Assembly (NCBI GenBank): GCA_038126235.1
Contig: JAYPFK010000011.1
Location: forward strand, 81,863 to 145,862
DNA: 64,000 bases
Direction: 5' to 3'
DNA from: Verrucomicrobiales bacterium
GTDB taxonomy: Bacteria; Verrucomicrobiota; Verrucomicrobiia; Limisphaerales; JAYPEY01
The notes below the pieces were generated by a model, which worked only from the letters and a program-made list of their open reading frames with translations, made no database searches and had not been told where the DNA came from. Every line of letters begins with the position of its first letter. Position 1 is the stretch's first letter. Shown here in pieces: positions 7,893 to 52,057 of this stretch. The translations under genes were made by a program, and so were the position numbers.

Positions 7893-11036
<3,144 letters not shown>

Positions 11037-11046
11037 ACCACTAACA

Positions 11047-11133
11047 GGCCCAACGGGCCGGCCCTATGACAGCCCAGGGCAACGCCTTGGGCAAACCGAC
11101 CAAACCAAATCGAGCCCCAACGGGGCGGCCCCA
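11047..11133 (+). repeat. REP-like unit 1 (three GC hairpins with AAC loops)
   Basis: GGCCC-AAC-GGGCC (11047-11059), CCCAGGGC-AAC-GCCTTGGG (11073-11091) and GCCCC-AAC-GGGGC (11114-11126). Confidence 0.85.
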
Positions 11134-11148
11134 AAGAAACGCAACCCG

Positions 11149-11607
11149 ATGCCACAATCCCTCGCCAAGGTCGTCATCCACATCGTGTTCTCAACCAAGA
11201 ACCGACACCCTTGGCTTGCCTCCTCCGACCTGCAATCCGGCCTCCACGCCTACATGGCGACCATTCTCCGAAACAACGTGGATTCACCGGCCATGCTCAT
11301 CAACGGCATGCCCGATCACATCCACGCGCTTTGCCAGTTGAGCCGCAAGTTTGCCATCATGGACGTCCTCAAAGAGATGAAGACCGAAACCAGCAAATGG
11401 CTGAAAGCCCAGTCTGCCAAAACGTCGGATTTTGCATGGCAATCGGGATACGGCGCCTTCTCGGTCAGCGAATCGAACATCCCCAAGGTGCGGGACTATA
11501 TTGCCAATCAGGAAGAACATCACAAGCGGGCGTCGTTCCAGGACGAGTTTCGCGCATTGTGTAAACGACATGGCATTGAATTGGATGAACGATATGCCTG
11601 GGATTAG
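11149..11607 (+). CDS. REP-associated tyrosine transposase (IS200-like, Y1_Tnp family)
   Basis: 152 aa. HUH motif in MPDHIHAL. C-terminal catalytic-Tyr block RDYIANQEEHH. Overall pattern (VVIHIVFSTKNR...WQSGYGAFSVS) matches IS200-like/RAYT proteins. Confidence 0.88.
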   Translation: MPQSLAKVVIHIVFSTKNRHPWLASSDLQSGLHAYMATILRNNVDSPAMLINGMPDHIHALCQLSRKFAIMDVLKEMKTETSKWLKAQSAKTSDFAWQSGYGAFSVSESNIPKVRDYIANQEEHHKRASFQDEFRALCKRHGIELDERYAWD

Positions 11608-11692
11608 GGCCGCCCCGTTGGGGCTTTGGGCCTTTTCGACACGCAGACCCGGGGCGGCGCCCCGGGCTGACATGGAGCCGGCCCTTTGGGCC
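11607..11692 (-). repeat. REP-like unit 2 (inverted, diverged)
   Basis: GCCCC-GTT-GGGGC (11612-11624) is the exact reverse complement of the third hairpin of unit 1. CCCGGGGC-GGC-GCCCCGGG (11648-11666) and GGCCC-TTT-GGGCC (11680-11692) align with the other two hairpins. Confidence 0.75.
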
Positions 11693-11798
11693 TTCAAGGC
11701 AGGCCGCGAAATGAATCGCGGTCAAACGGGCAGAATGACAAAGACGACGACGCGATGACACAGTAGTGGCAGAAATGAACGATGAAACCTCGGCCCCA

Positions 11799-11885
11799 GG
11801 CCCAACGGGCCGGCCTCATGAAAGCCCAGGGCAACGCCCTGGGAAACCCGAACAAATTGAACCGAGCCCCAACGGGGCGGCCCCA
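11799..11885 (+). repeat. REP-like unit 3 (direct copy of unit 1)
   Basis: GGCCCAACGGGCC (11799-11811), CCCAGGGCAACGCCCTGGG (11825-11843) and GCCCCAACGGGGC (11866-11878). Same order and spacing as unit 1. Confidence 0.85.
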
Positions 11886-11998
11886 ATCAAACGCACAGGA
11901 CCTGAACCAACACCGATGAGCCCGGACAATCGACAACTCCCGGCCCGCCTGTTGGGCCTTTCATTCGTGTAATCTGTGTATTCCGTGGTCGAAACAAA

Positions 11999-13444
11999 AT
12001 GAAAACAGACCCGATCGATCAGTGGATTGAACTGGAGACACGGCGGCAGTTCTTCGGCCGCTCAGCCAAGGGGCTCGGCGCGGTCGCGCTGGCCTCGCTG
12101 CTGAACCGCGACGCCTCCGCGGCTCCGGCCGAAGGCGGCGTCCTGAACGGCGGCCATTTTCCCGCCAAGGCCAAACGCGTCATCTGGCTCTTCATGGCCG
12201 GCGCGCCCTCGCAACTCGATCTCTGGGACCACAAGCCCAAGATGCAGGACTGGTTCGACAAGAACCTGCCCGAGTCCGTGCGCGGCGGCCAACGGCTGAC
12301 CACCATGACGGCGAACCAGTCGCGCTTCCCGATCGCGCCGTCGATGTTCAAGTTCACGCAGCACGGCCAATGCGGACGCTTCGCCAGCGAACTTCTGCCC
12401 AAACAGGGCTCCATGGCCGACGACATTGCGGTGATCAACACGATGTGGACCGAGGCGATCAACCACGACCCGGCCATCACCTACATCCAGACCGGCAACC
12501 AAATCCCCGGCAAGCCCACCCTCGGAGCATGGCTCAGCTACGGCCTGGGCAGCATGAACCGCAACCTCCCGGATTACGTCGTGCTCAACTGCGCGCCGCG
12601 CGGACAGGCTCTCTACTCGCGCCTCTGGGGCAGCGGCTTCCTGCCGTCGAAGCACGCCGGCGTCGCCTTCCGCGCGCAGGGCGATCCCGTGCTCTATCTC
12701 TCCAATCCCGGCGGCGTGGACCGCGACGCCCGCCGCCTCATGCTCGACACCCTCCAGGGCATGAACCGCCGCATCCACGACGAACTTGGCGATCCCGAGA
12801 CCCAGGCCCGCATCGCCCAATATGAGATGGCCTTCCGCATGCAGGCCTCCGTGCCCGATCTGATGGACATCTCCCGGGAGCCGAAGCACATCCGTGAGAT
12901 GTACGGCAAGGACGCCGAGAAGCCCGGGACGTTCGGCTACAACTGCCTCCTCGCCCGCCGCATGGCCGAGAAGGACGTCCGCTTCATCCAGATCTTCCAC
13001 CGCGGCTGGGACCACCACAGCGGTCTCCCCTCCAACATCCGCCGCCAGACCGGCGAGGTCGATCAACCCGCCTGGGCCCTGGTGCAGGATCTCAAGCAGC
13101 GCGGACTCCTCGACGACACCCTGATCGTCTGGGGCGGCGAGTTTGGCCGCACCATCTACAGCCAGGGCACGCTCACAAAGACCAACTACGGCCGCGACCA
13201 CCATCCCCGCTGCTACTCCGCCTGGCTTGCCGGCGGCGGAATCAAGGGCGGCTCCCAGCACGGCGAGACCGACGACTTCGGCTACAACATCGTCAAGGAC
13301 CCCGTCCACATCCGCGACCTTAACGCCACCATCCTCCACCAATGCGGCATCCAGCACGACCGCTTCACCGTCAAGCACATGGGCCTCGACCAACGCCTCA
13401 CCGGCGTGCTGGAGACCCGGATCGTGAAGGAGATTCTGGGCTGA
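11999..13444 (+). CDS. DUF1501 family protein (TAT signal, sulfatase/alkaline-phosphatase superfamily)
   Basis: Twin-arginine signal [23 protein letters not shown]. Motifs [15 protein letters not shown] and GGEFGRT...GRDHHP. Ends with LTGV...I.KEILG as in the two paralogs at 35415 and 40618. Confidence 0.9.
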
Positions 13445-29510: not shown

Positions 29511-29556
29511 ATCTTTCCTTGTTCGCCGTCGTCCGGAAGGTAAACAATCCCCGCTC

Positions 29557-32256
29557 ATGTTTCATTCCGCCCAACGCTCCTTTCGGGGCGCGGTCTGCGC
29601 CGCGACAATCGCGGCGGCAACCGGCGCCGCCACCGCAGCAGAAACCCTCGTCCCCTCGGATCTCTTCACGACCCTGCCCGGTCTGGAGGTCACCGTCTGG
29701 GCGGCCTCGCCGATGCTCAAGAACCCCACCAACATCGACATCGACAAGGACGGCCGCATCTGGGTCGCCGAGGGCGTCAATTACCGCGGCCACTATGGCC
29801 GACGCGCCGAGGGCGACCGCATCACCGTGCTGGAGGACACCGACGGCGACGGCAAGGCCGACAAGGAGTGGACCTTCGTGCAGGAGAAGTTCCTCGTCGC
29901 GCCGTTGGGCGTGGCGGTTTTTGACAACAAGATCGTCGTGTCCCAGACCCCGGACCTGATCGTCTACACCGACGTCAACCGGAACCTGAAGTTCGACGAG
30001 GGCACGGACAAGCGCGAGGTCCTGCTCTCCGGCTTCAACGGCCGCAACCACGACCACAGCCTCCACAGCGTCTACGCCGGCCCCGACGGCCGCTGGTATT
30101 TCAGCGCCGGCAACTGCGGCGCGAAGTTCACCGACAAGTCCGGCAAGACCTTCCGCATCGGCGGCCCCTACAATCCGCGCTCCACGCACAAGGAGACTCC
30201 CATGCTCTTCAACAACAATGAAATCGCCGGCCAGACCAGCGACGACGGCCACGTCTGGGTTGGCGGCTTTGTGGCGCGGGTCTATCCCGACGGAACGAAG
30301 TGCGAGATCCTCGGCCACAACTTCCGCAACAGCTACGAGCAGACCGTCACCTCCTTCGGCGACATCTTCCAGAACGACAACGACGATCCGCCCGCCTGCC
30401 GCGTCGACTATGTGATGGAAGGCGGCAACGCCGGTTTCGCCTCGGCGGACGGCAAGCGCGACTGGCGCGCGGACAAGCGCCCCGGCCAGGACGTTCCCAC
30501 CGCGGAATGGCGGCAGGAGGATCCCGGCACGATGCCGTCCGGTGATGTCTACGGCGGCGGCTCCCCCACCGGCGTCGCCTTCTACGAGAACGGCGCGCTC
30601 GGCAAGGAGCACGAAGGCATGCTGCTTTCCTGTGAGGCCGGCCGCAATGTGGTCTTCGGCTACAAGCCCCGCCTCGACGGCGCCGGCTTCAAGCTGGAGC
30701 GCTTCGACTTCCTCACCTCGAACAAGGACAAGCAGTTCGCCGGTTCGGACTTCCTCGGCGGCCACAACAGCGTGAACAACGAGCTGAAGACCCTGTTCCG
30801 TCCCTCCGACGTCTGCGTCGGCCCGGACGGCGCGGTCTACGTCTCGGACTGGTTCGACGCCCGCGTCGGCGGTCATGCCGCCCTGGACGAAACGGACTCC
30901 GGCGCGATCTACCGCGTCGCCCCGCGCGGCTTCACGCCGAAGGTCCCGGAACTTGATCTGAAGAAGACCAAGGGCCAGCTCGCCGCCCTCGAAAGCCCCG
31001 CAGTGAACGTCCGCACGCTCGGCTTCAACGCGCTGAAGCAGGAAGGCGGACGCAAGGCGGCCTCCACCGCCGCGAAACTGCTGGGCGACAGCAACCCTTA
31101 CCTCCATGCGCGCGGCGTCTGGCTGCTGGCCAACCTCGGCAGCGCGGGCCTGGGCCGCGTGGAGAAGGAACTGAGCGACAAGGACCCGAACATCCGCATC
31201 GCCGCCTTCCGCGCCCTGCGCCAGATGGACAGCAACGTCCTCATCCATTCCCGACTCCTGGCGAAGGACCCTTCCCCCGCCGTCCGTCGCGAAGTCGCAC
31301 TGGCCATGCGCAACGTCAAGCTCGCCGACGCCCGTGACATCCTGATTGACATCGCCAAGGGCTTCGACGGCAAGGACCGCCACTACCTCGAGGCGATCGG
31401 CCTCGGCTGCAAGGGCAAGGAGGCGCCGATGTTCGAGGCCTTCGCCAAGGCCCTCGGCGGCGACACGGCCGGCCCGCGCTGGTCGCCGAAATACGCGAAG
31501 ATCGCCTGGCGGCTGCATCCGGAAAGCTCGGTCTCGGCCTTCCGCGCCCGGGCGCTGTCCCTGACCCTGTCGCCGGAGGATCGCAAGGAGGCGTTGACCG
31601 CCCTCGCGTTCATCTACACCCAGGCCGCCGCCGACGCGGTGGTCGAGATCGCCGAACGCTCCTCCGGTTCGCTCCAGGCCACCGCCGTCTGGTGGCTGCT
31701 CAACCAGAGCAACCACAACTGGAAGGACTTCGGCCTCCGCGCCAAGCTCAAGGCGAGCGGCATCTACGATCCGGCGACCGTCCAGGTCATGTCGCTGATG
31801 GTCCCCAAACCGGAGGGACCGACCAGGATGAAGGTCGAAGACGTCCTGAAACTGACCGGCAACCCCCAGACCGGCAAACAGATCGCGACCGCCTGCGTCA
31901 CCTGCCATCGCGTCGAGGGCGTCGGCGTCGATTACGCGCCGGATCTGAACGCCTTCGCCAAGACCCAGACCACCGATGTCATCATCCGCTCGATCATCGA
32001 TCCTTCGGCCGACATCTCCCACGGCTACGACGGCTACCAGATCGTCACCAAGGACGACCAGACCATCCACGGCCTGATCCTCTCCGACGGCGATCCCGTG
32101 ATCGTCCAGTCCATGGGCGGCGTGACCCAGATGATTCCAAAGAACCGCATCAAGTCGAAAACCAAGCTCGGCCGCTCCCTCATGCTCTCCGCCGAGCAAC
32201 TGGGACTCACCGAACAGTTCGTCGCCGACATCGTGGCCTATCTGAAGGGGCTGTGA
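29557..32256 (+). CDS. PVC-type heme-binding CxxCH protein (dehydrogenase-like propeller + HEAT repeats + cytochrome c domain)
   Basis: Signal peptide. N-terminal block PMLKNPTNIDIDKDGRIWVAEGVNYRG...DTDGDGKAD. HEAT-like repeats (NPYLHARGVWLLANLG, DPNIRIAAFRAL). C-terminal CVTCHRVEG...GYDGYQIVTKDD domain. Confidence 0.88.
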   Translation: MFHSAQRSFRGAVCAATIAAATGAATAAETLVPSDLFTTLPGLEVTVWAASPMLKNPTNIDIDKDGRIWVAEGVNYRGHYGRRAEGDRITVLEDTDGDGKADKEWTFVQEKFLVAPLGVAVFDNKIVVSQTPDLIVYTDVNRNLKFDEGTDKREVLLSGFNGRNHDHSLHSVYAGPDGRWYFSAGNCGAKFTDKSGKTFRIGGPYNPRSTHKETPMLFNNNEIAGQTSDDGHVWVGGFVARVYPDGTKCEILGHNFRNSYEQTVTSFGDIFQNDNDDPPACRVDYVMEGGNAGFASADGKRDWRADKRPGQDVPTAEWRQEDPGTMPSGDVYGGGSPTGVAFYENGALGKEHEGMLLSCEAGRNVVFGYKPRLDGAGFKLERFDFLTSNKDKQFAGSDFLGGHNSVNNELKTLFRPSDVCVGPDGAVYVSDWFDARVGGHAALDETDSGAIYRVAPRGFTPKVPELDLKKTKGQLAALESPAVNVRTLGFNALKQEGGRKAASTAAKLLGDSNPYLHARGVWLLANLGSAGLGRVEKELSDKDPNIRIAAFRALRQMDSNVLIHSRLLAKDPSPAVRREVALAMRNVKLADARDILIDIAKGFDGKDRHYLEAIGLGCKGKEAPMFEAFAKALGGDTAGPRWSPKYAKIAWRLHPESSVSAFRARALSLTLSPEDRKEALTALAFIYTQAAADAVVEIAERSSGSLQATAVWWLLNQSNHNWKDFGLRAKLKASGIYDPATVQVMSLMVPKPEGPTRMKVEDVLKLTGNPQTGKQIATACVTCHRVEGVGVDYAPDLNAFAKTQTTDVIIRSIIDPSADISHGYDGYQIVTKDDQTIHGLILSDGDPVIVQSMGGVTQMIPKNRIKSKTKLGRSLMLSAEQLGLTEQFVADIVAYLKGL

Positions 32257-32607: not shown

Positions 32608-35418
32608 ATGAGTATTTTGCGGAAAAAGTTGTTTCAGATGGTTGCCGGCGCCGTCTTGCTCCCGGTCGCGACCTCCCCGGTTGCGGCCGCGGCCGATGGC
32701 GTGGAGTTCTTTGAGAAGGAGATCCGCCCGATCCTGGCCGCGCATTGCTACGAGTGCCATTCCTCCGAAAGCGGGAAGCACAAGGGCGGACTCAACGTCG
32801 ATCACCGAGACGGCCTGCTGAAGGGCGGCGACAGCGGCCCGGCGATTGTCCCCCAGCATCCCGACCGGAGCCGCCTCATCGAGGCCGTCAGCTACCGGAA
32901 CCGGGATTTCCAGATGCCGCCCAAGCGGCCGTTGACGACGGCCCAGGTGGACGCGCTCACCAAATGGATCGAAATGGGCGCGCCCGATCCGCGCGAGGCC
33001 GGACCGGGCGCGGCTGCGAAACACCTGGAGCCGAGCGTCGAGGAAGGCCGAGATTTCTGGGCGTTCCAGCCCCTGGCCTCCCCGGCCGTTCCGCCGTCCT
33101 CCGGCAAAGACGCGAAGATCGCGAATCCCATCGACGCGTTCCACCAGGCGCGCCTAGCCACGGCCGGACTCCGGCCTGCGCCGCCGGCGGACAAGCGCGA
33201 CCTCATCCGCCGCGCGACCTACGACCTCACCGGCCTGCCCCCCACCCCGGGCGAGGTGGAGGAATTCCTGGCGGACGATTCCCCGGGAGCATTCCGCCGC
33301 GCGGTGGACCGGCTGCTGCGTTCGCCGCAGTATGGCATCCGCTGGGGACGCCATTGGCTGGATGTGGCGCGCTATGCGGACTCCAACGGCCGTGATGAAA
33401 ACCTCGCCTTCGGCAACGCCTGGAGGTATCGGGACTACGTCGTCGACGCCTTCAACAACGACAAGCCCTTCAACCGCTTCCTTGTCGAGCAGCTCGCGGG
33501 CGACCTGCTGCCCGACGCCGACCGCGAGACCTTCACCGCCACCGGCTTCCTCCAACTCGGCGCCAAGGTCCTCGCCGAAAGCGACAAGGACAAACTGCTC
33601 ATGGACACCATCGACGAGCAGATCGACACCACGGGCAAGGCCTTCCTCGGCATGACGCTCGGCTGCGCGCGCTGCCATTCACACAAGTTCGACCCGGTTC
33701 CGCAGGAGGACTACTACTCGCTCGCCGCGATCTTCAAGAGCACCGCGACCTTTGACAAAGGCGGCCGCGGCGCGATCCAGTACTGGCATGAGCGCTCCTT
33801 TGCCGACGAGGAGGAGAAGAAGCAAATCGCCGAGGTGGACAAGCAGATCGCCAAGCTGAAATCGGCGGCCTCGAGCTTCAAGTCCAAGGCCACGGTGAAA
33901 CTGCGCGGCGAGGCGCGCGCCCAGGCGGCCGACTACCTTGCCGCGGCGACAAGGTTCAAACCCAGCGCGACGCTGGAGGAGGTGGCAATGATCGCCGCGC
34001 CAGAGGGATTGCATCCGCGCATCCTCCACACCTGCCGCCTGCATCTGGAATACAACAAGACCGATCCCTTCTTCTCCCAGTGGCACGAACGCGCAAACGA
34101 CCCGACCGCGGTGAAAGCGCATTTCGCGAAGGTGTTCGAGGAGGCGGAAGCCGCCTTCGCCGAGGCGCGCAAGAAGGACCCGAAGGAAGCCAAGCTTACC
34201 GACGAGCGCCTTGAACTCGCGCGCGCCGCGCTCTACGACCTCTCGGGTTTTCTCACCGTCCCCGCCAAACCGGAACACGCCTTCGACGCCGAAACCCTCG
34301 CGGAGCACGACCGGTTGAACGAGGAGGCGCGGGTCTTCGAGAGCGCAGCCGCCGACATCACCGCCGCCATGGGCGTCACCGACGGCGAGATCCTGAAGGA
34401 ACTGCCGCTGCACATCCGCGGCAGCCACATCAACCTCGGGAGGCCGGTTCCCCGCGGCGTGCCCCGGGTGATGCGCTTCAGCCGCCGGAGCCTGAAATTC
34501 CCGGACAACCAGAGCGGTCGCCTGGAGCTGGCGAAGTGGATGGCCGACGACCGCCATCCGCTCACCGCCCGCGTCTTCGTCAACCGCGTCTGGCGCTGGC
34601 ATTTCGGCCGCGGAATCGTCGCCACGCCGAACAACTTCGGCGAGCAGGGCGCCCGGCCGACGCATCCCGAACTGCTGGACTGGCTGGCCGGCGAGTTCAT
34701 CCGCTCGGGCTGGAGCGTCAAGGCGCTGCATCGCCTGATCATGAACTCCAACGCCTACCGCATGGCGGCGCACCATTCCGATCCCGCCCTCGCCGATCGC
34801 ATCGATCCCTCGAACCTGCTCTGGTCGCGCTTCGACATCCGTCGCCTGGAAGCCGAGGAGATTCGCGATTCCGCCCTGGCCGCGGCCGGGATGCTGGACA
34901 AGCGTCTGGGCGGCAAGACCATCCCCCTGCGCAACCGCCAGTTCTTCTTCAACCACACCTCCAAGGATCACACCCACTACGAGAAGCTCCGCCGGCGCTC
35001 GCTCTATCTGCCCGTCGTGCGCAACCACCTGTGTGACATCTTCGAGCAGTTCGATTTCCCGGATCCGAACCTCACGGTCGGCAACCGCCAGTCCACCACG
35101 GTCGCGCCGCAGGCCCTGATGATGATGAACTCCACCCTGTTCATGGATGCCGGCGACGCCCTCGCCGAGCAGCTTCTGGAAACTGGAGCCGACGACGCCC
35201 GGCGCGTGGAGCTGGCCTACGAACGCGCGCTGGTCCGTCCGCCCACAGATGCCGAGCGCGAACGCGCGCTGCAATTCGTCGCCGAAATGACCGGCCCGCC
35301 CGCCCTGCTGAACTCCTCGACCGTGGATGAAGCCGCGACCGCTGAAGCCCGCCGGGAAGCCTGGTCGCTGTTCTGTCAAAGCCTGCTGGCGTCGAATGAG
35401 TTTGTTTATCTGAAATGA
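32608..35418 (+). CDS. PSCyt1/DUF1549/DUF1553 (PSD1) family protein
   Basis: Signal peptide, then CxxCH (AAHCYECHSSE). Motifs PIDAFHQARLATAGLRP and GCARCHSHKFDP. DUF1553-type C-terminus (HPELLDWLAGEF...NRQSTTVAPQALMMMN). Confidence 0.9.
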   Translation: MSILRKKLFQMVAGAVLLPVATSPVAAAADGVEFFEKEIRPILAAHCYECHSSESGKHKGGLNVDHRDGLLKGGDSGPAIVPQHPDRSRLIEAVSYRNRDFQMPPKRPLTTAQVDALTKWIEMGAPDPREAGPGAAAKHLEPSVEEGRDFWAFQPLASPAVPPSSGKDAKIANPIDAFHQARLATAGLRPAPPADKRDLIRRATYDLTGLPPTPGEVEEFLADDSPGAFRRAVDRLLRSPQYGIRWGRHWLDVARYADSNGRDENLAFGNAWRYRDYVVDAFNNDKPFNRFLVEQLAGDLLPDADRETFTATGFLQLGAKVLAESDKDKLLMDTIDEQIDTTGKAFLGMTLGCARCHSHKFDPVPQEDYYSLAAIFKSTATFDKGGRGAIQYWHERSFADEEEKKQIAEVDKQIAKLKSAASSFKSKATVKLRGEARAQAADYLAAATRFKPSATLEEVAMIAAPEGLHPRILHTCRLHLEYNKTDPFFSQWHERANDPTAVKAHFAKVFEEAEAAFAEARKKDPKEAKLTDERLELARAALYDLSGFLTVPAKPEHAFDAETLAEHDRLNEEARVFESAAADITAAMGVTDGEILKELPLHIRGSHINLGRPVPRGVPRVMRFSRRSLKFPDNQSGRLELAKWMADDRHPLTARVFVNRVWRWHFGRGIVATPNNFGEQGARPTHPELLDWLAGEFIRSGWSVKALHRLIMNSNAYRMAAHHSDPALADRIDPSNLLWSRFDIRRLEAEEIRDSALAAAGMLDKRLGGKTIPLRNRQFFFNHTSKDHTHYEKLRRRSLYLPVVRNHLCDIFEQFDFPDPNLTVGNRQSTTVAPQALMMMNSTLFMDAGDALAEQLLETGADDARRVELAYERALVRPPTDAERERALQFVAEMTGPPALLNSSTVDEAATAEARREAWSLFCQSLLASNEFVYLK

Positions 35419-36839
35419 ACGACAACGCCCCATTGATCACCCGCCGCCGGATGCTCCGCGACAGCGCCGTGGGCTTCGGCAACATCGCCCTGCTGTCGAT
35501 GCTCCATGGCGAGGCCTCGGCATCCAACGCCGTCAAGCCGGGCAATCCCCTGGCCGCGAAGATCCCGCACATTGCGCCGCGGGCGAAGCGGGTCGTGTTC
35601 CTGTTCATGAAGGGGGGGCCGTCGCACGTGGACACCTTCGATCCCAAGCCGCTGCTCACCCGCGACCACGGCAAGAAGCCGCCCTTCGACCTGCCGCGCG
35701 TCACCTTCGCCAAGCAGGGCAATCTCCTGAAGTCGCCCTGGGAGTTCAAGCAACACGGCCAGAGCGGCCTGCCCGTCAGCAGTCTCTTCCCCAACGTCGC
35801 GAAGTGCATCGACGACCTCTGCATCCTGCGTTCGGTGCACGGCACCAATCCCGCGCACGGCGGCGCGCTGCTCAAGCTGCACACCGGCAGCGACAACTTC
35901 ATCCGGCCCAGCATGGGCTCCTGGGTCGTCTACGGCCTCGGAACGGAGAACGAGAATCTCCCCGCCTTCATCACCATCTGCCCGACCCTGGCCCACGGCG
36001 GCGTGACGAACTGGGGCGCGCAATTCCTGCCGGCCTACTGCCAGGGCACGCCGATCGGCAACGCCAGCCTCGCGGCCAGGACGGTCGGGGTGAAGAACAT
36101 CCGCAACCAGCGCATCGACGCCCGCACGCAACGGCGGCAACTGGACCTGATCGCCGCCATGAACCGCGATCACCTGGAGGCCTCCGGCGCGGAGAAGGCG
36201 CTGCTCGGACGGCTCAACTCCTTCGAACTCGCCTACCGGATGCAAACCTCGATGCCCGAGGCGCAGGACCTTTCCGGCGAATCCGAGGCGACCAAGAAGC
36301 TCTACGGCATCGACGATCCGGTGACCGAGGACTTCGGCCACCAGTGCCTGATGGCGCGCCGCTTCCTCGAACGCGGCGTCCGCTTCGTGCAGGTCACGCA
36401 CAGCGACAGCGAGGTGCAGTGGGACCAGCACAGCAACCTCTACCAGGGCCACACCAAGAACGCCGCCGAGGTGGACAAGCCGATCGCCGGCTTCCTCCGC
36501 GACCTCAAGTCGCAGGGCCTGCTCGAGGACACGCTGGTGATGTGGGGCGGCGAATTCGGCCGCACGCCCACCGCGCAGGGCAACAACGGTCGCGACCACA
36601 ATCCCCACGGCTTCACCATGTGGTTCGCCGGCGCCGGCGTGAAGGGCGGTCACGCCTACGGCGCCACCGACGACTACGGCTACTACGCCGCCGTGGACAA
36701 GATGCACGTCCACGACCTTCACGCCACGATGCTCCACGCCCTGGGCATGGACCACGAGAAGCTGACCTTCCATTACGCCGGCTTCGACCACCGTCTCACC
36801 GGCGTCGAAGGAAACGTCGCGACGGAGATCTTCGGGTGA
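35415..36839 (+). CDS. DUF1501 family protein (TAT signal)
   Basis: TAT signal ITRRRMLRDSAVGFGNIALLSML. Motifs MKGGPSHVDTFDPKP and GGEFGRTP...GRDHNP. The ATG overlaps the upstream stop (ATGA at 35415-35418). Confidence 0.9.
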   Translation: MNDNAPLITRRRMLRDSAVGFGNIALLSMLHGEASASNAVKPGNPLAAKIPHIAPRAKRVVFLFMKGGPSHVDTFDPKPLLTRDHGKKPPFDLPRVTFAKQGNLLKSPWEFKQHGQSGLPVSSLFPNVAKCIDDLCILRSVHGTNPAHGGALLKLHTGSDNFIRPSMGSWVVYGLGTENENLPAFITICPTLAHGGVTNWGAQFLPAYCQGTPIGNASLAARTVGVKNIRNQRIDARTQRRQLDLIAAMNRDHLEASGAEKALLGRLNSFELAYRMQTSMPEAQDLSGESEATKKLYGIDDPVTEDFGHQCLMARRFLERGVRFVQVTHSDSEVQWDQHSNLYQGHTKNAAEVDKPIAGFLRDLKSQGLLEDTLVMWGGEFGRTPTAQGNNGRDHNPHGFTMWFAGAGVKGGHAYGATDDYGYYAAVDKMHVHDLHATMLHALGMDHEKLTFHYAGFDHRLTGVEGNVATEIFG

Positions 36840-36853
36840 CTCCTCTCCGGGGA

Positions 36854-37154
36854 GCTGTGCATTACGCACAAATTCACACTTTCAGACAACGGGGCAAACC
36901 GGTGTGGTTACAACGATTGGAGCCTGTTACACGGTAGGGCGGTCGTTGCATCGCCGCCCACTTCGACATCCTGAAGGGATGAAACAACCCGCCGCCGTGT
37001 ATTGTCGTGAGATGCTTGCGCCCTTTCAGGGCTTTGGGATGGGTCGCGACACAACGCGACCCTACCGTGATTGTCTGTCAGCGGTCGATTCCGCCTCGGA
37101 AAGCCGGGAAATAGACCGATTCCACAAATTGTGATCTTGTGCGGAATGCACAGC
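36854..37154. repeat. Composite nested palindromic element
   Basis: The outer 25-nt arms are 36854-36878 (GCTGTGCATTACGCACAAATTCACA) and 37130-37154 (reverse complement GCTGTGCATTCCGCACAAGATCACA), matching at 22/25. They enclose an inner element at 36930-37069. Its arms CACGGTAGGGCGGTCGTTGCATCGCCGCCC and GGGTCGCGACACAACGCGACCCTACCGTG are related in reverse complement, and each forms its own GC hairpin. Confidence 0.7.
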
Positions 37155-37289
37155 GCCTGAGAGGGGATCAGTGCGTTGGCATGCAGGGGGGAATGATCGT
37201 GTTTCCCAGACGCCAGGAAAGGGGTTTGGTTCGGCCGCATAAAGACGGTTCACATTTCCGGCCGAGCGGTTAGATTTGCGGCTTCGCTT

Positions 37290-40200
37290 ATGAGAAGAAC
37301 CGTTTTCGTCCTTCTGACCGCTGCGCTGTCCGGCGTCGCCTCCGCTTCCTCCGCGCCTTCCGACGTCATCCAGTTCAACCGCGACATCCGGCCGCTGCTT
37401 TCCGACGCCTGCTTCCAATGCCACGGACCCGACAAGAACTCCCGCAAGGCGAAGCTGCGCCTGGACCTGGAGCAGGAGGCCAAGGCCGACCGCAAGGGCC
37501 ACGCCAGCATCGTCCCCGGCGACCCCATGGCCAGCGAGTCCTACCTGCGCATGATCACGGACGACGAGGACGATCTGATGCCGCCGAAGGAATCCGGCAA
37601 GTCGCTCACTCCCGACGAGATTGCGCTGATCAGGAAATGGATCGAACAGGGCGCGCCCTGGCAGGGGCACTGGTCCTTCATCCGTCCCGAACGTCCCGCA
37701 ATCCCGCCCGTCGCCGACACGGAGTGGCCGCAGTCTCCGGTCGATTTCTTCATCCGCGCGCGCCTGGAACAGGAGGGGCTTCAACCGTCGTCCGAGGCCG
37801 ACCGCCGCACGCTGATCCGGCGCGTGACCTTTGATCTCACCGGCCTGCCGCCGACGCCGGACGAGGTGGATGCCTTCCTCGCCGACCGGGATCCAAACGC
37901 CTTTGAGAAGGTTGTCGACCGCCTCCTGCGCAGCCCGCGCTACGGGGAACGGATGGCGATGGCGTGGCTGGACCTCGTCCGCTACGCCGACACCGTGGGT
38001 TACCATGGCGACCAGGATTTCAGCGTCTGGCCCTACCGGGACTACGTCATCCGGGCCTTCAACGACAACATGCCCTTCGACCGTTTCACCCGCGAGCAAC
38101 TGGCCGGCGACCTTCTGCCGAACCCCACGCGCGACCAGCAGGTCGCCTCCGGTTACAACCGCCTCCTCATGATCACCGCCGAGGGCGGCGCGCAGGACAA
38201 GGAATACCTCGCCAAGTACGCCGCAGACCGTGTCCGCACGACCGCCGTGACCTGGTTGGGCGCGACGATGGGCTGCGCCGAATGCCACGACCACAAGTTC
38301 GATCCCTATACCATGGAAGACTTCTATTCGTTGGAGTCCTTCTTCGCCGACCTCGATGAAAAGGGCTTCTACGGGGGCGCCAACCGCGACGGCCGTTGGG
38401 GCCCCAGCATGCAGCTTCCGTCCCCTGAGGAAGCCGACCGTCTCAAGCAGTACGACAATGAGATCGCCCGCCTCGAAGGCGTCCTCAACACCCAGACGCC
38501 GGAACTGGACAAGGCCCAGCGCGAATGGGAGCAGCGTTTTCGCGATCTTCATGCCCGGCTCGAGCTCGCATGGCGCCCGCTCAAGCCGGTCGATGCAAAG
38601 GCCGAAAAAGGCGCTGTCCTCCATCGCAATCCGAACTACTCAATCCGCGCCTTCGGCGATCAGGTCACGCATGACAACTTCACCGTCACCCTGGAAACCG
38701 ACCGGGAACTCATCACCGGCCTGATGCTGGAGACGCTGCCCAGCGGCAAGGGAGACCAGAAGAAGGTCGGCATGAACAGCGGCAACTTCATCCTGACCGG
38801 CTTCGAGGTCGAGGCGTTGGCGCCGGGCGCGGACAAGCCCGCGAACGTGAAGCTCAGCTCCGCCGTCGCCGACTATTCGCAGAAGGGCTTCGAGATTGCC
38901 AAGGCCATCGACGGCAAGAAGGACACGGGCTGGGCCGTGGATGGCCATACGAAGAAGGAAACCCGCAAGGCCGTGTTCACCTTCGCGCAGCCAGTGAAGG
39001 CCGGCCCGGGCACGAAGCTCATCGTTCGCCTCAAGCACGAGTCCAAGCAGAAGAACCACGTCATCGGCCGCTTCCGCGTCTCGGTCAGTTCGGCGGAGCG
39101 GCCCACATTCGACAAGTTCGCCATGCCGCTCAAACGCTGGCAGATCGTCCGGGCGGACGAAAAGGAGCGCACACCCGAGCAGAAGGTTGAACTGGCGAAA
39201 CATTTCAGGAGCATCACGCCGCAACTCGATCCCGCCCGCGCCGAGCTGGCGAAGCAGCAGAGGGAGCGCGCGGCCTTCGACAAGGCGATCCCGACCACCC
39301 TGGTTTCCCGCCAGCGTGAATCGCCCCGCCCCATCCGCATCCTGCCTCGCGGCAACTGGCTCGACGAGTCCGGCCAGGTCGTCACGCCCGCCACCCCGCG
39401 CTTCCTGGGCGGTCCCCGCAGCGGCGGGAAGACCCGCCTCACCCGCCTCGACCTCGCGGACTGGCTGGTCTCCCGCGACAACCCGCTCACCGCGCGCGTG
39501 TTCGTGAACCGACTGTGGCGGCAGTATTTCGGCGTGGGGCTGTCCAAGAATCTCGACGATCTGGGCGCCCAGGGAGAAGCGCCGTCCCATCCGGAACTGC
39601 TCGACTGGATGGCGGTCGACTTCATGGACAGCGGCTGGAACGTCAAGCGCGCCGTCAAGCAGATCGTCATGTCGGCGACCTACCGGCAATCTTCCAAGGG
39701 CTCGCCCGCGTTGGATGAACGCGACCCCTACAACCGCCTGCTCGCGCGTCAGGCGCGCATCCGTCTGGACGCCGAGGTCGTCCGCGACAACGCCCTCGCG
39801 ATCAGCGGCCTGCTGGTGGAGAAGCTGGGCGGGAAGAGCGTGAAGCCCTACCAACCGGCGGATTATTACGCGCAGCTGAACTTCCCCAAGCGCACCTACA
39901 AACACGATTCCGGCCAGAACCAGTATCGCCGCGGTCTCTACACGCACTGGCAACGAACCTTCCTGCATCCGATGCTCAAGGCCTTCGACGCCCCCAGCCG
40001 CGAGGAATGCACCGCCGAAAGGCCCGTCTCCAACACCCCGCTCCAGGCCCTGACCCTGCTCAACGACCCCAGTTACGTCGAAGCCGCCCGCGTCTTCGCC
40101 GAACGCGTCATCCGGGAGGGCGGCGACAGCGTCGACGCAAAGCTCGCCTTCGCCTATCAAACCGCGCTCGCACGAAAACCAGAGGACGCCGAGCGCAAGC

Positions 40201-40382
40201 TCCTCGCCGCGCTTTACGAGAACCACAAGAAGAAGTACGCAGCCGATGAAGAGGCGGCGAAGGCCCTGCTCAGCGCCGGCGAATACGACCGGCCCGCCGA
40301 CCTGCCCATCGCCGAGTCCGCCGCCTGGACCTCGGTGGCGAGGGCGATTCTGAATCTGCACGAAACGATTTCGCGATACTGA
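37290..40382 (+). CDS. PSCyt1/DUF1549/DUF1553 (PSD1) family protein
   Basis: Signal peptide, then CxxCH (SDACFQCHGPD). Motifs PVDFFIRARLEQEGLQP and GCAECHDHKFDP. A central beta-sandwich-like insert. DUF1553-type C-terminus (HPELLDWMAVDF...SREECTAERPVSNTPLQAL). Confidence 0.9.
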   Translation: MRRTVFVLLTAALSGVASASSAPSDVIQFNRDIRPLLSDACFQCHGPDKNSRKAKLRLDLEQEAKADRKGHASIVPGDPMASESYLRMITDDEDDLMPPKESGKSLTPDEIALIRKWIEQGAPWQGHWSFIRPERPAIPPVADTEWPQSPVDFFIRARLEQEGLQPSSEADRRTLIRRVTFDLTGLPPTPDEVDAFLADRDPNAFEKVVDRLLRSPRYGERMAMAWLDLVRYADTVGYHGDQDFSVWPYRDYVIRAFNDNMPFDRFTREQLAGDLLPNPTRDQQVASGYNRLLMITAEGGAQDKEYLAKYAADRVRTTAVTWLGATMGCAECHDHKFDPYTMEDFYSLESFFADLDEKGFYGGANRDGRWGPSMQLPSPEEADRLKQYDNEIARLEGVLNTQTPELDKAQREWEQRFRDLHARLELAWRPLKPVDAKAEKGAVLHRNPNYSIRAFGDQVTHDNFTVTLETDRELITGLMLETLPSGKGDQKKVGMNSGNFILTGFEVEALAPGADKPANVKLSSAVADYSQKGFEIAKAIDGKKDTGWAVDGHTKKETRKAVFTFAQPVKAGPGTKLIVRLKHESKQKNHVIGRFRVSVSSAERPTFDKFAMPLKRWQIVRADEKERTPEQKVELAKHFRSITPQLDPARAELAKQQRERAAFDKAIPTTLVSRQRESPRPIRILPRGNWLDESGQVVTPATPRFLGGPRSGGKTRLTRLDLADWLVSRDNPLTARVFVNRLWRQYFGVGLSKNLDDLGAQGEAPSHPELLDWMAVDFMDSGWNVKRAVKQIVMSATYRQSSKGSPALDERDPYNRLLARQARIRLDAEVVRDNALAISGLLVEKLGGKSVKPYQPADYYAQLNFPKRTYKHDSGQNQYRRGLYTHWQRTFLHPMLKAFDAPSREECTAERPVSNTPLQALTLLNDPSYVEAARVFAERVIREGGDSVDAKLAFAYQTALARKPEDAERKLLAALYENHKKKYAADEEAAKALLSAGEYDRPADLPIAESAAWTSVARAILNLHETISRY

Positions 40383-40464
40383 GGCGGTAGATTGCGCTGA
40401 TGAAGAATCTCAAATCCCAAGCTCCGAGTTCCAAAGAAGCCGGCCGCCTTGGCGCGAGCGCGTT

Positions 40465-40586
40465 GGCAGTCAGGGCGAACCCACCCCGATTCTGCCGCTC
40501 GAATCCGACTTCGTCGGCGCAACAAAATATCCCCTCCCGCGAAGCTATGAGGAGGATGGAATCGGGGTGGGTTCGCAGGGACTGGC
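40465..40586. repeat. Long hairpin element in the PSD-DUF1501 intergenic region
   Basis: 40465-40492 GGCAGTCAGGGCGAACCCACCCCGATTC and 40559-40586 GAATCGGGGTGGGTTCGCAGGGACTGGC match at 24/28 as reverse complements, including a 16-nt perfect core. The loop is 66 nt. The element ends 32 nt before the ATG at 40618, whose SD is AGGAGA. Confidence 0.75.
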
Positions 40587-40617
40587 AATGCGTTTCCGAT
40601 TCTGACAGGAGAACACC

Positions 40618-42060
40618 ATGAACACCCCCAACCCCGACCACCTCCGCTCCCTGAATCGCCGCTCCTTTCTCGCGCGCTCCGGCGCGGGCGTTGGGTCTGC
40701 GGCTCTGGCTTCACTGATGGATCCGGGCCTCTTCGCCAAAGACGCCAAGTCCGCCGCCGATTCCCGCTGGACCGGCATCATCAAGAAGCCGCACTACCCG
40801 CGCCGCTGCAAACGCGTGATCCATCTCTGCATGGCCGGCGGCATGACGCACCTGGAGACCTTCGATTACAAGAAGGTCCTCGCCGAAATGAACGGCAAGC
40901 CCATGCCGGAATCCATGACCAAGGGCCAGCCCATCGCGCAGCTCCAGGGCCGCGAACTCAAGTGCATGGGACCACAGCACGAGTTCAAGAACTACGGGCA
41001 GTCCGGGCAGCACATGACGACGCTGTTCCCGAACATTGGCAAGGTCGCCGACGACGTCTGCATCGTCCGCTCCCTGCACACCGAACAGATCAATCACGAC
41101 CCCGCCCACACCTACATGAACACCGGAGCTCTTGTCTCCGGACGTCCCAGCATGGGTTCCTGGCTGCTTTACGGCATCGGCGCCGAGGCGGACGAACTTC
41201 CCGGATTCGTGGTCCTGACCTCGCTCGGCAAGGGCGGCCAGGCCCAGCCCATCGCCGCGCGCCAGTGGCACAGCGGCTTCCTGCCCAGCAATTTCCAGGG
41301 CGTGCAGTTCCATTCCAAGGGTGACCCGGTGCATTACGTCGGTTCGCCGAGGGGCGTCGATCGCGCGGGGCAACGCGATGTGGTGGACACCGTCAACTCC
41401 CTGAACCGCGTCCTGCAGAGCTCCATCGATGATCCCGAGATTGCCACGCGCATCAGCCAGTATGAGATGGCCTTCAAGATGCAGGCCAGCGTCCCGGACC
41501 TCATGGACACGTCCAAGGAGCCGCAGAGCATTCTGGATCTATACGGGGCCAAGCCCGGCGATGGCTCTTACGCCTCCAACTGCCTCCTCGCCCGGCGTCT
41601 CGCCGAGCGCGGGGTGCGCTTCATCCAGCTTTACCACCGCTCCTGGGACCATCATGGCGACGTGAAGGGCAAGATGAAGGTCAGCGCCAAGGAGGTCGAT
41701 CAGGCCACCATGGCGCTGATCATGGATCTCAAGCAACGCGGCATGCTGGACGAGACCCTGATCATCTTCGGCAGCGAATTCGGCCGCACGCCGATGGCGC
41801 AGGGCAGCGGGCGCGACCACCACATCAAGGGCTTCTCCATGATGCTGGCCGGCGGCGGCATCAAGCCCGGTTCCAGCTTCGGCGCCACCGACGACTTCGG
41901 CTACAACGCCGTCCAGGACAAGGTCCACGTGAGCGACCTCCACGCCACGATGCTCTACCTCCTCGGGATCGAGCACACCAAGCTCACCTACCGTTTTCAG
42001 GGCTTGGACTTTCGCCTGACCGGCGTCGCGGGGAATGTCCTGAAACCGCTGGTGGCGTGA
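40618..42060 (+). CDS. DUF1501 family protein (TAT signal)
   Basis: TAT signal SLNRRSFLARSGAGVGSAALASLM. Motifs MAGGMTHLETFDYKK and GSEFGRTP...GRDHHI. Good SD (AGGAGA) 6 nt upstream. Confidence 0.9.
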   Translation: MNTPNPDHLRSLNRRSFLARSGAGVGSAALASLMDPGLFAKDAKSAADSRWTGIIKKPHYPRRCKRVIHLCMAGGMTHLETFDYKKVLAEMNGKPMPESMTKGQPIAQLQGRELKCMGPQHEFKNYGQSGQHMTTLFPNIGKVADDVCIVRSLHTEQINHDPAHTYMNTGALVSGRPSMGSWLLYGIGAEADELPGFVVLTSLGKGGQAQPIAARQWHSGFLPSNFQGVQFHSKGDPVHYVGSPRGVDRAGQRDVVDTVNSLNRVLQSSIDDPEIATRISQYEMAFKMQASVPDLMDTSKEPQSILDLYGAKPGDGSYASNCLLARRLAERGVRFIQLYHRSWDHHGDVKGKMKVSAKEVDQATMALIMDLKQRGMLDETLIIFGSEFGRTPMAQGSGRDHHIKGFSMMLAGGGIKPGSSFGATDDFGYNAVQDKVHVSDLHATMLYLLGIEHTKLTYRFQGLDFRLTGVAGNVLKPLVA

Positions 42061-47681: not shown

Positions 47682-47744
47682 CCGGGCAGCCTCGTCGCGG
47701 TTCAGATCAGGCGGGATGGCATCGTGTCGCCGACGGCTCCGGGA

Positions 47745-48422: not shown

Positions 48423-48572
48423 GGGGCTCCGGAATGAGGGATTGAATCTGTCTTCGGGTTGAACGTGGAATTGGATCGCCGAGCCACGCCGGAAATTCAA
48501 GGAGATTGAGCGCCGTTGTTCGGAGGATTCAGATTGCCAAACCGGCGGCGCGACGGGACAACCGACGCTCAC

Positions 48573-52046: not shown

Positions 52047-52057
52047 TGAACAGGCGT

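Follow-up and report, generated by a model that had tools for sequence, protein, structure and literature searches.

The stretch of 64,000 nucleotides of Verrucomicrobiales DNA analysed here (the window) contains three pairs of genes, each encoding a large PSCyt1/PSCyt2/PSD1 protein and a small DUF1501 protein, that are further members of a genuine and previously described module, and the paired genes clearly work together. The pair was described in 2012, including its Laminin_G_3 variants and TAT signals (Kamneva et al., PMC3542564), and He et al. 2017 (PMC5615132) later took the module up again, with both papers calling its function unknown. The initial annotation rightly regarded the co-occurrence as a signature of PVC genomes, since the exact pair is in the 2012 paper, but its candidate for an uncharacterised system has been in the literature since that year. 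Its statement that no role had been demonstrated agrees with our finding no functional study of the DUF1501/PSCyt module in the literature searched. In domain architectures and adjacency the window pairs are the same as the published module of Planctomycetes, Verrucomicrobia and Lentisphaerae, with no essential difference. A sister PVC module, consisting of PSCyt3-type proteins and an unknown neighbour family of their own (He et al. 2017, PMC5615132), follows the same logic of a large Planctomycete-type "cytochrome" protein plus a second protein, but its domain families differ, and an HMM search of the window found the PSCyt2 type only.

Three gene pairs in the window

All six open reading frames were confirmed on the + strand (Table 1), with the large gene first and the small gene second in each pair, and their GC3 values of 0.82-0.92 are typical for coding sequence in a window of 65% GC. 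Pfam searches identified PSCyt1, PSCyt2 (DUF1549) and PSD1 (DUF1553) in L1, L2 and L3, with Laminin_G_3 in addition in L1, and DUF1501 in S1, S2 and S3 (E about 1e-147 to 1e-154). The motifs quoted earlier for the large partners (CFACH/CYECH/CFQCH, GCxxCH(D/S)HK(Y/F)DP and HPELLDW(L/M)A) and for the small ones (RR, GAPSQLD/GGPSHVD/GGMTHLE, G(G/S)EFGRT and GRDH) were all located by regular expression, and HMMs built from these proteins detected exactly three large and three small partners in the window. The module had been called thrice-repeated, which holds for the number of pairs but not in the sense of a recent duplication, the small partners being mutually 38-46% and the large partners 36-38% identical, with S1 closest to S3 and L1 closest to L3. 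At 36-46% identity, the copies are ancient, diverged paralogues and not recent repeats.

The intervals between partners differ among the three pairs. The ATGA overlap reported for pair 2 is real. The 962-bp gap between L1 and S1 exists because a mobile element was inserted there, in which seven copies of the repeat AGSCCCAACGGGSCGGCC flank a Y1 transposase ORF; this insertion is outside the module proper. In the L3-S3 spacer, a long imperfect inverted repeat is predicted to fold into a stable RNA hairpin (-104 kcal/mol over the whole spacer, z = -4.0).

Table 1. Positions of the paired genes, their motifs and intervening elements in the window
Feature	Position	Strand	Remarks
L1, large partner	7893..11036	+	1047 aa; signal peptide, PSCyt1, PSCyt2, Laminin_G_3 insert, PSD1
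L1 PSCyt1 motifs	CFACH 8010-8024; MPP 8166-8174	+	
L1 PSCyt2 motif	8862-8897	+	GCAVCHDHKYDP
L1 PSD1 motif	10236-10262	+	HPELLDWLA
Mobile-element insertion	11046..11973		between L1 and S1
Transposase ORF	11149-11607	+	IS200-like Y1; inside pair 1 gap
S1, small partner	11999..13444	+	481 aa; DUF1501
S1 motifs	TAT TRRQFF 12038-12055; WDHH 13007-13018; GGEFGRT 13133-13153; GRDH 13190-13201	+	
L2, large partner	32608..35418	+	936 aa; PSCyt1, PSCyt2, helical insert, PSD1
L2 PSCyt1 motifs	CYECH 32746-32760; MPP 32914-32922	+	
L2 PSCyt2 motif	33661-33696	+	GCARCHSHKFDP
L2 PSD1 motif	34663-34689	+	HPELLDWLA
S2, small partner	35415..36839	+	474 aa; DUF1501
ATGA overlap	35415-35418	+	4 bp; S2 start / L2 stop codon
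S2 motifs	TAT TRRRML 35439-35456; WDQH 36420-36431; GGEFGRT 36546-36566; GRDH 36588-36599	+	
S2 His148	35856-35858	+	near-invariant; at sulfatase formylglycine position by weak alignment
L3, large partner	37290..40382	+	1030 aa; PSCyt1, PSCyt2, ~200-aa insert, PSD1
L3 PSCyt1 motif	37410-37424	+	CFQCH
L3 PSCyt2 motif	38271-38306	+	GCAECHDHKFDP
L3 PSD1 motif	39588-39614	+	HPELLDWMA
Imperfect inverted repeat	40459..40592	+	L3-S3 spacer; 34-nt arms, 18-nt perfect core
S3, small partner	40618..42060	+	480 aa; DUF1501
S3 motifs	TAT NRRSFL 40654-40671; WDHH 41644-41655; GSEFGRT 41770-41790; GRDH 41809-41820	+	

Adjacency and joint diversification of the partners

We examined 80 related loci from species-representative genomes of at least six phyla, counting the DUF1501 genes whose upstream sequence extended for 1.5 kb or more, 76 in all. 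For 61 of the 76, the next ORF upstream, in the same orientation, was a PSD1 gene, a frequency far above chance expectation; gene order and strand were constant and spacers mostly short, bearing out the proposed conservation of the pair as a unit. Pairing was found in Planctomycetota, Verrucomicrobiota, Armatimonadota, Acidobacteriota (Bryobacterales), Hydrogenedentota, Kiritimatiellia and Bacteroidales, and approximately 20% of the sampled DUF1501 genes had no PSD1 gene within the 6-kb flanks examined. In addition, the large and small partners diversify jointly: their pairwise identities were correlated (r = 0.69, 59 pairs; none of 2000 permutations reached this value), and the nearest neighbour was identical for both partners in 32 of the 59 pairs. 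The orthologues of S2 and L2 sit on contigs of matching length across two homologue lists, and two fragmentary database proteins are in-frame fusions of a PSD1 C-terminus with DUF1501. Orthologues of S2 are 76-80% identical between Verrucomicrobia and Planctomycetes. Both families are large: R. baltica has every large-partner domain in 41 copies, and DUF1501 has 27,637 cluster representatives. The 101 ORFs that directly border related pairs included a single sulfatase, and neither a conserved third partner nor a conserved enzyme, transporter or regulator was found among them; the sulfatase-rich setting described in the initial annotation is thus a trait of the window, not of the module.

Domains of the large and small partners

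In PSCyt1 of L2, C47, C50, H51 and M103-P104-P105 were invariant in 40 homologues, and the PSCyt1 profile matched the dihaem cytochrome FoxE of Rhodobacter ferrooxidans (PDB 5mab; E 7.8e-7), both haem domains of which match with CxxCH and MP(P/L) aligned. The relation is limited to the N-terminal domain of about 100 aa, and FoxE has no PSCyt2, PSD1 part or DUF1501 partner. CxxCH was present in all 46 PSCyt1-bearing partners and MP(P/L) in 43 of them; with CxxCH and the conserved MPP, PSCyt1 shows the sequence hallmarks of a c-type cytochrome domain. It is kept in 82% of large partners and was undetected in 10 of 56, one of these being truncated at its N-terminus by a contig end, and none of the 10 had another N-terminal CxxCH. 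Given these 10, the core chemistry cannot depend on PSCyt1. The PSCyt2 motif CxxCHxH(K/R), by comparison, occurred in 55 of the 56. The PSCyt2/PSD1 core is helical, and searches revealed no PDB relative of this core and no cytochrome relative of the fold bearing the PSCyt2 CxxCH, which could alternatively be a metal or disulphide site. Between PSCyt2 and PSD1, partners carry an insert of 70 to 578 aa and, as had been noticed, the three window copies differ here: L1 has Laminin_G_3, whereas the helical insert of L2 and the lineage-restricted insert of about 200 aa in L3 had no Pfam match, and the L1 and L3 inserts showed no significant mutual similarity.

For DUF1501, the sulfatase-like hallmarks and metallo-hydrolase activity initially proposed go beyond the data. 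Specifically, homology to sulfatases was significant only over the C-terminal 108 columns (hhalign 90.8% probability, E 1.2e-6), where GGEFGRT lies against the metal-binding strand S-D-(N/Q)-G of sulfatases, and the Pfam Sulfatase model gave 13 bits, below its cut-off of 25. DUF1501 is homologous to the type I (S1) formylglycine sulfatases and the alkaline-phosphatase superfamily in its C-terminal half, but the formylglycine motif (C/S)xPxR of the former is absent and, in a weak alignment without statistical significance (E 0.15), their DD metal ligands face M-(K/A) and their formylglycine position faces His148. In the N-terminal half, the order of strands and helices corresponds to that of sulfatases, as does a T-G closing the "nucleophile" helix, and strand 1 is not followed by the canonical first metal ligand. 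The top 35 Foldseek matches of a moderately confident S2 model (pLDDT 67.5) all belonged to the alkaline-phosphatase superfamily, YejM/PbgA domains among them, but were weak, none reaching E 0.001. We found no PDB sequence match for DUF1501 and no recognisable redox-cofactor motif in it. Among 87 diverse representatives, Asp337 was kept in 87, His339 in 86, His148 in 85, Ser/Thr70 in 84 and Glu380 in 83, and the RR motif in 75.

Possible functions of the module

Our leading explanation, in which we have about even confidence, is that each pair specifies a self-contained periplasmic two-subunit enzyme, its reaction redox-linked rather than plainly hydrolytic. DUF1501 would be the catalytic subunit on an alkaline-phosphatase/sulfatase-type scaffold, exported folded by TAT with its metal centre presumably pre-assembled, and would work without formylglycine chemistry, a near-invariant His apparently taking the place of the sulfatase cysteine; its putative active site comprises Ser70, Asp73/76, Lys78, His148, Asp337, His339, Glu380, Arg383 and His395. 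The large protein is exported by Sec, the route that covalent haem attachment calls for; the Sec/TAT division and possible haem binding, both foreseen in the initial annotation, are compatible with the sequences. In a physical complex with DUF1501, it would supply the conserved helical PSCyt2/PSD1 core with its near-invariant CxxCHxH(K/R) site, its variable middle insert would pick the substrate (by a lectin-type domain in pair 1), and the usual, though not universal, N-terminal class-I-type cytochrome c domain would wire the unit to periplasmic electron carriers. It is from these proposed contributions of the large protein that a redox-linked reaction is favoured.

In periplasmic oxidoreductases, for example SorAB, SoxCD and NapAB, the standard arrangement places a TAT-exported catalytic subunit beside a c-type cytochrome exported by Sec. 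The module resembles them in layout only, namely adjacent genes with a TAT signal and with a Sec signal plus CxxCH; DUF1501 has a completely different fold and lacks any signature of molybdopterin, Fe-S or flavin, and the cytochrome partner of the module is about 1000 aa long and mostly of a novel helical fold. We know of no redox enzyme in the alkaline-phosphatase superfamily, which counts against a redox role, as do the partners with undetected PSCyt1, the PSCyt2 fold without a cytochrome relative and the want of a recognisable redox-cofactor motif in DUF1501. The moderate S2 model, weak Foldseek matches, non-significant His148 alignment and solo DUF1501 genes likewise speak against the proposed two-subunit enzyme.

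It is possible, although we think it rather unlikely, that the pair is a plain hydrolase with a specificity or scaffold subunit, which is how the initial annotation read it. DUF1501 would then act as a phospho- or sulfo-esterase that depends on metal and has Ser70 or His148 for its nucleophile, and the large protein would merely bind and present the substrate; CxxCH would serve a structural purpose (metal or disulphide) or hold haem with no electron-transfer role in catalysis. To our knowledge, all characterised members of the superfamily transfer phosphoryl or sulfuryl groups, and TAT export also occurs among hydrolases of the same clan, the PlcH/AcpA-type phosphoesterases. The C-terminal sulfatase homology and the Foldseek matches fit such an enzyme, as do the near-invariant Ser/Thr70, Asp and His residues, the lectin-type insert of L1 and the partners with undetected PSCyt1; however, DUF1501 has neither the canonical first metal ligand nor the formylglycine motif, CxxCHxH(K/R) is near-invariant in PSCyt2, and a PSCyt1 with true-cytochrome hallmarks, retained in most partners, is hard to square with a passive scaffold.

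We consider it improbable that the pair is non-catalytic, with DUF1501 a ligand-binding pseudo-enzyme like the YejM/PbgA periplasmic domain, acting with the large protein in sensing, uptake or the organisation of the envelope. This reading comes near what was proposed in 2012, a connection with PVC internal membranes, one DUF1501 cluster type having correlated at 0.85 with intracellular membranes (Kamneva et al. 2012, PMC3542564), and it agrees with the non-conserved sulfatase catalytic set, the YejM/PbgA matches and the absence of conserved neighbours among the flanking ORFs. Yet the many His, Asp, Glu and Arg residues that are near-invariant across the 87 representatives look like those of an active site, S2 orthologues remain highly similar between two phyla, Armatimonadota, Acidobacteriota and Bacteroidales, groups not known for PVC-type membranes, have the pair as well, and dozens of paralogues per genome are easier to reconcile with diverse substrates than with a structural role. 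Finally, an incidental adjacency of two very abundant PVC gene families forming no functional units, to which their expansion and the solo DUF1501 genes might point, is scarcely credible, the constant arrangement, joint diversification, 4-bp overlap in pair 2 and conservation over at least six phyla weighing strongly against it.

For the published module, the present analysis adds that PSCyt1 is dispensable, that CxxCHxH(K/R) is near-invariant and that a His apparently replaces formylglycine, and it adds the presence of the pair in genomes of Armatimonadota, Acidobacteriota (Bryobacterales), Hydrogenedentota and Bacteroidales.

Three diverged gene pairs in the window

Each of the three pairs consists of a large gene (L1 to L3) followed by a gene for a small DUF1501 protein (S1 to S3). 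All six open reading frames were found on the + strand at the positions that the initial annotation had given them (see table), and their GC3 values of 0.82 to 0.92 mark them as real genes; G+C is 65% across the whole window. HMM searches detected PSCyt1 (PF07635), PSCyt2 (DUF1549, PF07583) and PSD1 (DUF1553, PF07587), in this order and each above its gathering score, in all three large proteins, and DUF1501 (PF07394) at full length (profile positions 1-390) in all three small ones, with scores of 512, 490 and 500 bits against a gathering cut-off of 27. Every motif quoted earlier was located at its exact position in the sequence, and the ATGA overlap reported for pair 2 (L2 and S2) was confirmed. 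HMMs derived from the window retrieved three large genes, three small ones and no others in the 64 kb; the CxxCH motif occurs exactly twice in each large protein, and each large gene lies directly upstream of its DUF1501 gene on the same strand. The central inserts do differ between copies, as had been noted: L1 carries an additional Laminin_G_3 domain (Pfam), the insert of L2 is helical without a Pfam match, and that of L3 (about 200 aa) gave only faint Pfam matches, among them F5/8 type C at E 0.19. A large protein database held 11 homologues of the L3 insert, all in PSD1 proteins without an annotated insert domain, and no similarity was found between the inserts of L1 and L3.

Identities were 38-46% among the small proteins and 36-38% among the large ones, ruling out a recent tandem duplication, as the paralogues are only 36-46% identical. 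In contrast, orthologues of S2 in Planctomycetes (such as Maioricimonas, Stieleria and Rhodopirellula) are 76-80% identical to it and those of L2 about 60%; contigs of matching size recur in both homologue lists, suggesting that the S2 and L2 orthologues share contigs. The low identity between copies, set against these close orthologues elsewhere, indicates that the three pairs are ancient subfamilies, which happen to sit within 35 kb of one another. Public collections already contain all six proteins, their mates in 90% clusters being from Limisphaerales or Verrucomicrobiia MAGs.

Pairs and other features located in the window
Feature	Position	Strand	Remarks
L1	7893-11036	+	large gene of pair 1
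S1	11999-13444	+	DUF1501 gene of pair 1
L2	32608-35418	+	large gene of pair 2
S2	35415-36839	+	DUF1501 gene of pair 2
L3	37290-40382	+	large gene of pair 3
S3	40618-42060	+	DUF1501 gene of pair 3
Formylglycine-type sulfatases	5449-7824, 13578-15023, about 15386-17554		around pair 1
Element between L1 and S1	11046-11973		transposase ORF and repeats
Y1 transposase ORF	11149-11607		IS200-like
GreA/GreB-type transcript cleavage factor domain	20351-22387		residues 452-601 of 678-aa ORF; start putative
DUF7133-HEAT repeats-C-terminal cytochrome c proteins	29488-32256 and 57751-60768		large; one CxxCH each (CVTCH, CAQCH)
Arms of inverted repeat, pair 2-pair 3 spacer	36841-36882 and 37126-37167
Inverted repeat, L3-S3 spacer	40459-40592
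Sodium:solute symporter	46086-47681	-	in 46086-57629 cluster
3-keto-disaccharide hydrolase/DUF1080 protein	47745-48683	-	in 46086-57629 cluster
910-aa ORF	48516-51248		GC3 0.86 (strong coding signal); without a Pfam match up to E 1
GFO/IDH/MocA oxidoreductases	52600-54114 and 54316-55701	+ and -	in 46086-57629 cluster; one with TAT signal
Glucose/sorbosone dehydrogenase-type protein	56322-57629		in 46086-57629 cluster
tRNA gene	61491-61563		opposite strand to, and immediately upstream of, kinase-Macro ORF
Ser/Thr protein kinase fused to Macro (ADP-ribose-binding) domain	61599-63128		509-aa ORF

The gap of pair 1 contains an IS200-like Y1 (tyrosine) transposase ORF (Pfam Y1_Tnp, E 1e-21), flanked on both sides by an 18-nt GC-rich repeat, AGSCCCAACGGGSCGGCC, which occurs in seven copies and both orientations, is absent elsewhere in the window, and reached seven matches in 0 of 100 shuffles. 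The arrangement resembles a REP-associated transposase (RAYT/REPtron) element, which may have uncoupled pair 1 transcriptionally. In the 235-nt spacer between L3 and S3 there is an imperfect inverted repeat of 34 nt, whose core of 18 nt is perfect (GCGAACCCACCCCGATTC); a long RNA hairpin without an Rfam match is predicted there (-104 kcal/mol for the whole spacer, z = -4.0, equalled by 0 of 200 shuffles), with processing, stability or attenuation as candidate roles. Between pairs 2 and 3 lies a 42-nt inverted repeat, 79% complementary, with its arms 243 nt apart. The tRNA was the only match in an Rfam scan of the window, which thus gave no riboswitch hint at a ligand, and a scan for promoters and terminators yielded counts not above those of shuffled controls.

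Among the other genes, the two DUF7133-HEAT-cytochrome c proteins belong to a PVC-typical (Planctomycetes/Verrucomicrobia group) family of putative haem proteins, as yet without an assigned function; the first ends 352 bp upstream of L2. One of the sulfatases around pair 1 has a C-terminal Laminin_G_2 domain; a second carries a fused BD-FAE/alpha-beta-hydrolase esterase domain, and its ORF probably starts later than the listed TTG (14624), since this overlaps the preceding sulfatase. The cluster at 46086-57629 suggests periplasmic oxidative sugar metabolism. With its putative start, the GreA/GreB-type ORF would carry an N-terminal extension of about 450 aa without a Pfam match.

Domains of the large and small proteins

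The N-termini of L1 to L3 look like Sec signal peptides that lack a lipobox. In PSCyt1, residues C47, C50 and H51 and the segment M103-P104-P105 are invariant in 40 homologues, and FoxE, a dihaem cytochrome (5mab), is matched by the PSCyt1 profile in each of its haem domains (E 7.8e-7), with the MP(P/L) segment aligned. Judged by these sequence tests, the invariant CxxCH and Met and the FoxE match, PSCyt1 is predicted to be a cytochrome c domain of class-I type, with His and Met as ligands. The domain is accessory, since ten of the 56 large partners (one cut by a contig end) gave no PSCyt1 match and no other N-terminal CxxCH takes its place in these ten. The motif in PSCyt2 is more constant, CxxCH being present in 56/56 partners and CxxCHxH(K/R) in 55/56; profile and Foldseek searches found no relative of its surroundings among PDB cytochromes, and this CxxCH may be a c-type haem site. 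The AlphaFold2 model of L2 is almost wholly helical (pLDDT 78, large parts above 90) and none of its Foldseek matches in the PDB was better than E 0.75, so that the fold of the PSCyt2/PSD1 core lacks any relative of known structure. The stretch that separates PSCyt2 from PSD1 varies in length among partners, from 70 to 578 aa, as expected for a swappable specificity module.

The small proteins bear the TAT motifs TRRQFF (S1), TRRRML (S2) and NRRSFL (S3), each followed by a hydrophobic stretch, and 75 of 87 diverse DUF1501 representatives also have an RR motif. No useful PDB sequence match was found for the single proteins; profile searches of the PDB returned FoxE for PSCyt1 and only sub-threshold sulfatase or LtaS matches for DUF1501, and NCBIfam has no model for either the large or the small protein. 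The initial annotation had noted hallmarks of the alkaline-phosphatase/sulfatase superfamily in the DUF1501 proteins, and this held in part. In a profile-profile comparison (hhalign) with the three sulfatases of the window, DUF1501 aligned with a probability of 90.8% (E 1.2e-6), the homology being limited to the C-terminal 108 columns, where GGEFGRT lies on the S-D-(N/Q)-G strand and the later metal site of sulfatases, D-(N/H), aligns with E380-F381 (S2 numbering throughout). The AlphaFold2 model of S2 is moderate (pLDDT 67.5, pTM 0.75); its top 35 Foldseek matches, all with E of at least 0.02, all belong to the alkaline-phosphatase superfamily and include S1-type sulfatases, LtaS/LtaP, YejM/PbgA, phosphonate monoester hydrolase, alkaline phosphatase and iPGM. 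This partial but consistent evidence suggests that DUF1501 belongs to the superfamily at fold level. The sulfatase part of this did not stand: the (C/S)xPxR formylglycine motif, sought along the entire sequence, is missing from all three window proteins and occurs in only 2 of 120 close homologues and 3 of 87 diverse representatives, and Pfam Sulfatase, DUF229 and Phosphodiest gave only sub-threshold matches, the best Sulfatase score (S2 only) being 13.1 bits against a gathering score of 25. The name 'Sulfatase' that some databases give to these DUF1501 proteins is unjustified.

A restricted hhalign comparison of the N-terminal halves of DUF1501 and sulfatase was non-significant (E 0.15) and reproduced the order of secondary structures; in this alignment His148 falls on the formylglycine cysteine, T157-G158 on the T-G of the sulfatase signature, and the DD metal ligands of sulfatases on M-(K/A). 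Residues conserved in the 87 diverse representatives are Asp337 (87), His339 (86), His148, Lys78 and Arg383 (85 each), Ser/Thr70 (84), Glu380 (83), Asp76 (82) and His395 (81). These dense conserved polar residues, together with the high identity of S2 orthologues across phyla, lead us to argue for a working active site unlike that of sulfatases.

Association of the two genes across phyla

The association was surveyed with the window-derived HMMs on six-frame ORFs in a sample of one genome per species, which returned 80 loci from Planctomycetota, Verrucomicrobiota, Armatimonadota, Acidobacteriota (Bryobacterales), Hydrogenedentota, Kiritimatiellia and Bacteroidales. The proposed pairing was borne out: of the 76 DUF1501 genes whose upstream sequence extends for 1.5 kb or more, 61 are directly preceded by a PSD1 ORF on the same strand; by our own estimate, from a few dozen copies in a genome of several thousand genes, chance would give fewer than one of the 76. 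In the adjacent cases the large gene precedes the small one without exception, and spacers are mostly short. Pairwise identities of the small proteins correlate with those of the PSCyt2 + PSD1 core (r = 0.69, 59 pairs; none of 2000 Mantel permutations matched it). The two partners share their nearest neighbour in 32 of these 59 pairs, and within the window S1 and S3 are closest to each other, as are L1 and L3. About 20% of the DUF1501 genes sampled are solo, with unrelated genes upstream.

In two fragmentary library proteins (P0350 and P0376), the C-terminal part of PSD1 is fused in frame to DUF1501, the DUF1501 match in P0376 starting at profile position 23, about 10 residues past the end of the PSD1 match. 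These could be natural fusions or artefacts of assembly or gene calling, and because assembly errors are possible they back the unit only weakly as Rosetta-stone evidence.

Among 101 ORFs flanking related pairs, we found no conserved third gene and no Pfam family with more than three occurrences (three for AhpC/TSA and Redoxin, one for sulfatase), and after this census a sulfatase or any third gene was dropped as part of the module. As sulfatase accounts for only one of these ORFs, the sulfatase- and oxidoreductase-rich setting to which the initial annotation had drawn attention is a feature of the window and not of the module. Thiol-disulphide oxidoreductases of the AhpC/TSA, Redoxin and Thioredoxin_8 types were the sole family seen more than twice beside related pairs (3/101, a small number); oxidoreductases of such types can serve cytochrome c maturation.

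The module is a known PVC signature, as had been stated: Kamneva et al. 2012 (PMC3542564) described the same module, including the TAT motif and variants with Laminin_G_3 and F5/8 type C domains, suggested electron transport, and stated the function as unknown. He et al. 2017 (PMC5615132) noted that PSCyt2 genes usually adjoin a family of unknown genes, discussed carbohydrate-binding inserts and sulfatase neighbours, and found PSCyt genes to be commoner in oxic-layer genomes and inversely related to glycoside hydrolase density; Wecker et al. 2009 reported 41 copies of each large-partner domain in R. baltica. Searches of open-access papers and bioRxiv by domain and product names found no functional study, in agreement with the earlier statement. 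The unit is real, but already known as an uncharacterised PVC module, and its sequences are already public. Added here are the adjacency and co-diversification figures, a wider range of phyla, the accessory nature of PSCyt1, the near-invariant CxxCHxH(K/R), a core fold without a PDB relative, the absence of a conserved third gene, and a catalytic set of sulfatases that appears to be lost, a conserved His falling where formylglycine would be in a non-significant alignment (E 0.15).

Possible function of the pair

In the most economical reading, the pair would be a periplasmic heterodimeric enzyme, with DUF1501 as the TAT-exported catalytic metal subunit and the Sec-exported large partner supplying specificity and one or two c-type haems. 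We favour a redox-linked reaction for such an enzyme, because the cytochrome-type domain is kept in 82% of large partners, the second CxxCH is near-invariant, and the TAT/Sec two-gene layout is a classic signature of periplasmic oxidoreductases, the module resembling in this respect SorAB, SoxCD and NapAB. Against a redox-linked reaction, we know of no redox member of the alkaline-phosphatase superfamily, and PSCyt1 is dispensable in some large partners; both points favour a serious rival, in which DUF1501 would be a plain esterase and its partner a scaffold. Set beside the working active site argued for in DUF1501, a non-catalytic role of the pair appears quite unlikely.

The redox-linked reaction can be framed more specifically, although we consider it unlikely that the pair represents a new class of periplasmic redox enzyme with a His-rich redox metal centre, a haem relay and glycan-derived substrates. 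In such a class, the formylglycine/Ca site would have been swapped for a His-rich, redox-active metal centre in the alkaline-phosphatase-fold subunit, and a substituent on a glycan-derived substrate would be removed or converted oxidatively, not hydrolytically. Electrons would pass to a covalent haem in the PSCyt2/PSD1 helical fold and then to the FoxE-like cytochrome domain, and substrate specificity would come from the variable insert, in a role comparable to that of carbohydrate-binding modules in glycoside hydrolases.

The window brings no new kind of object; its value lies in three diverged, intact pairs of one genome, one of them translationally coupled, as expression candidates, and beyond these it makes the important question of function no more testable. 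A global library clustered at 50% identity contains 27,637 representatives of DUF1501, which with its PSCyt/PSD1 partners is among the most expanded uncharacterised families of Planctomycetes and Verrucomicrobia, bacteria with a major part in the breakdown of complex organic matter in oceans, lakes and soils. A reaction assigned to the module would provide an annotation for tens of thousands of genes in one step, and a redox-linked reaction, if true, would be new chemistry for the alkaline-phosphatase superfamily.
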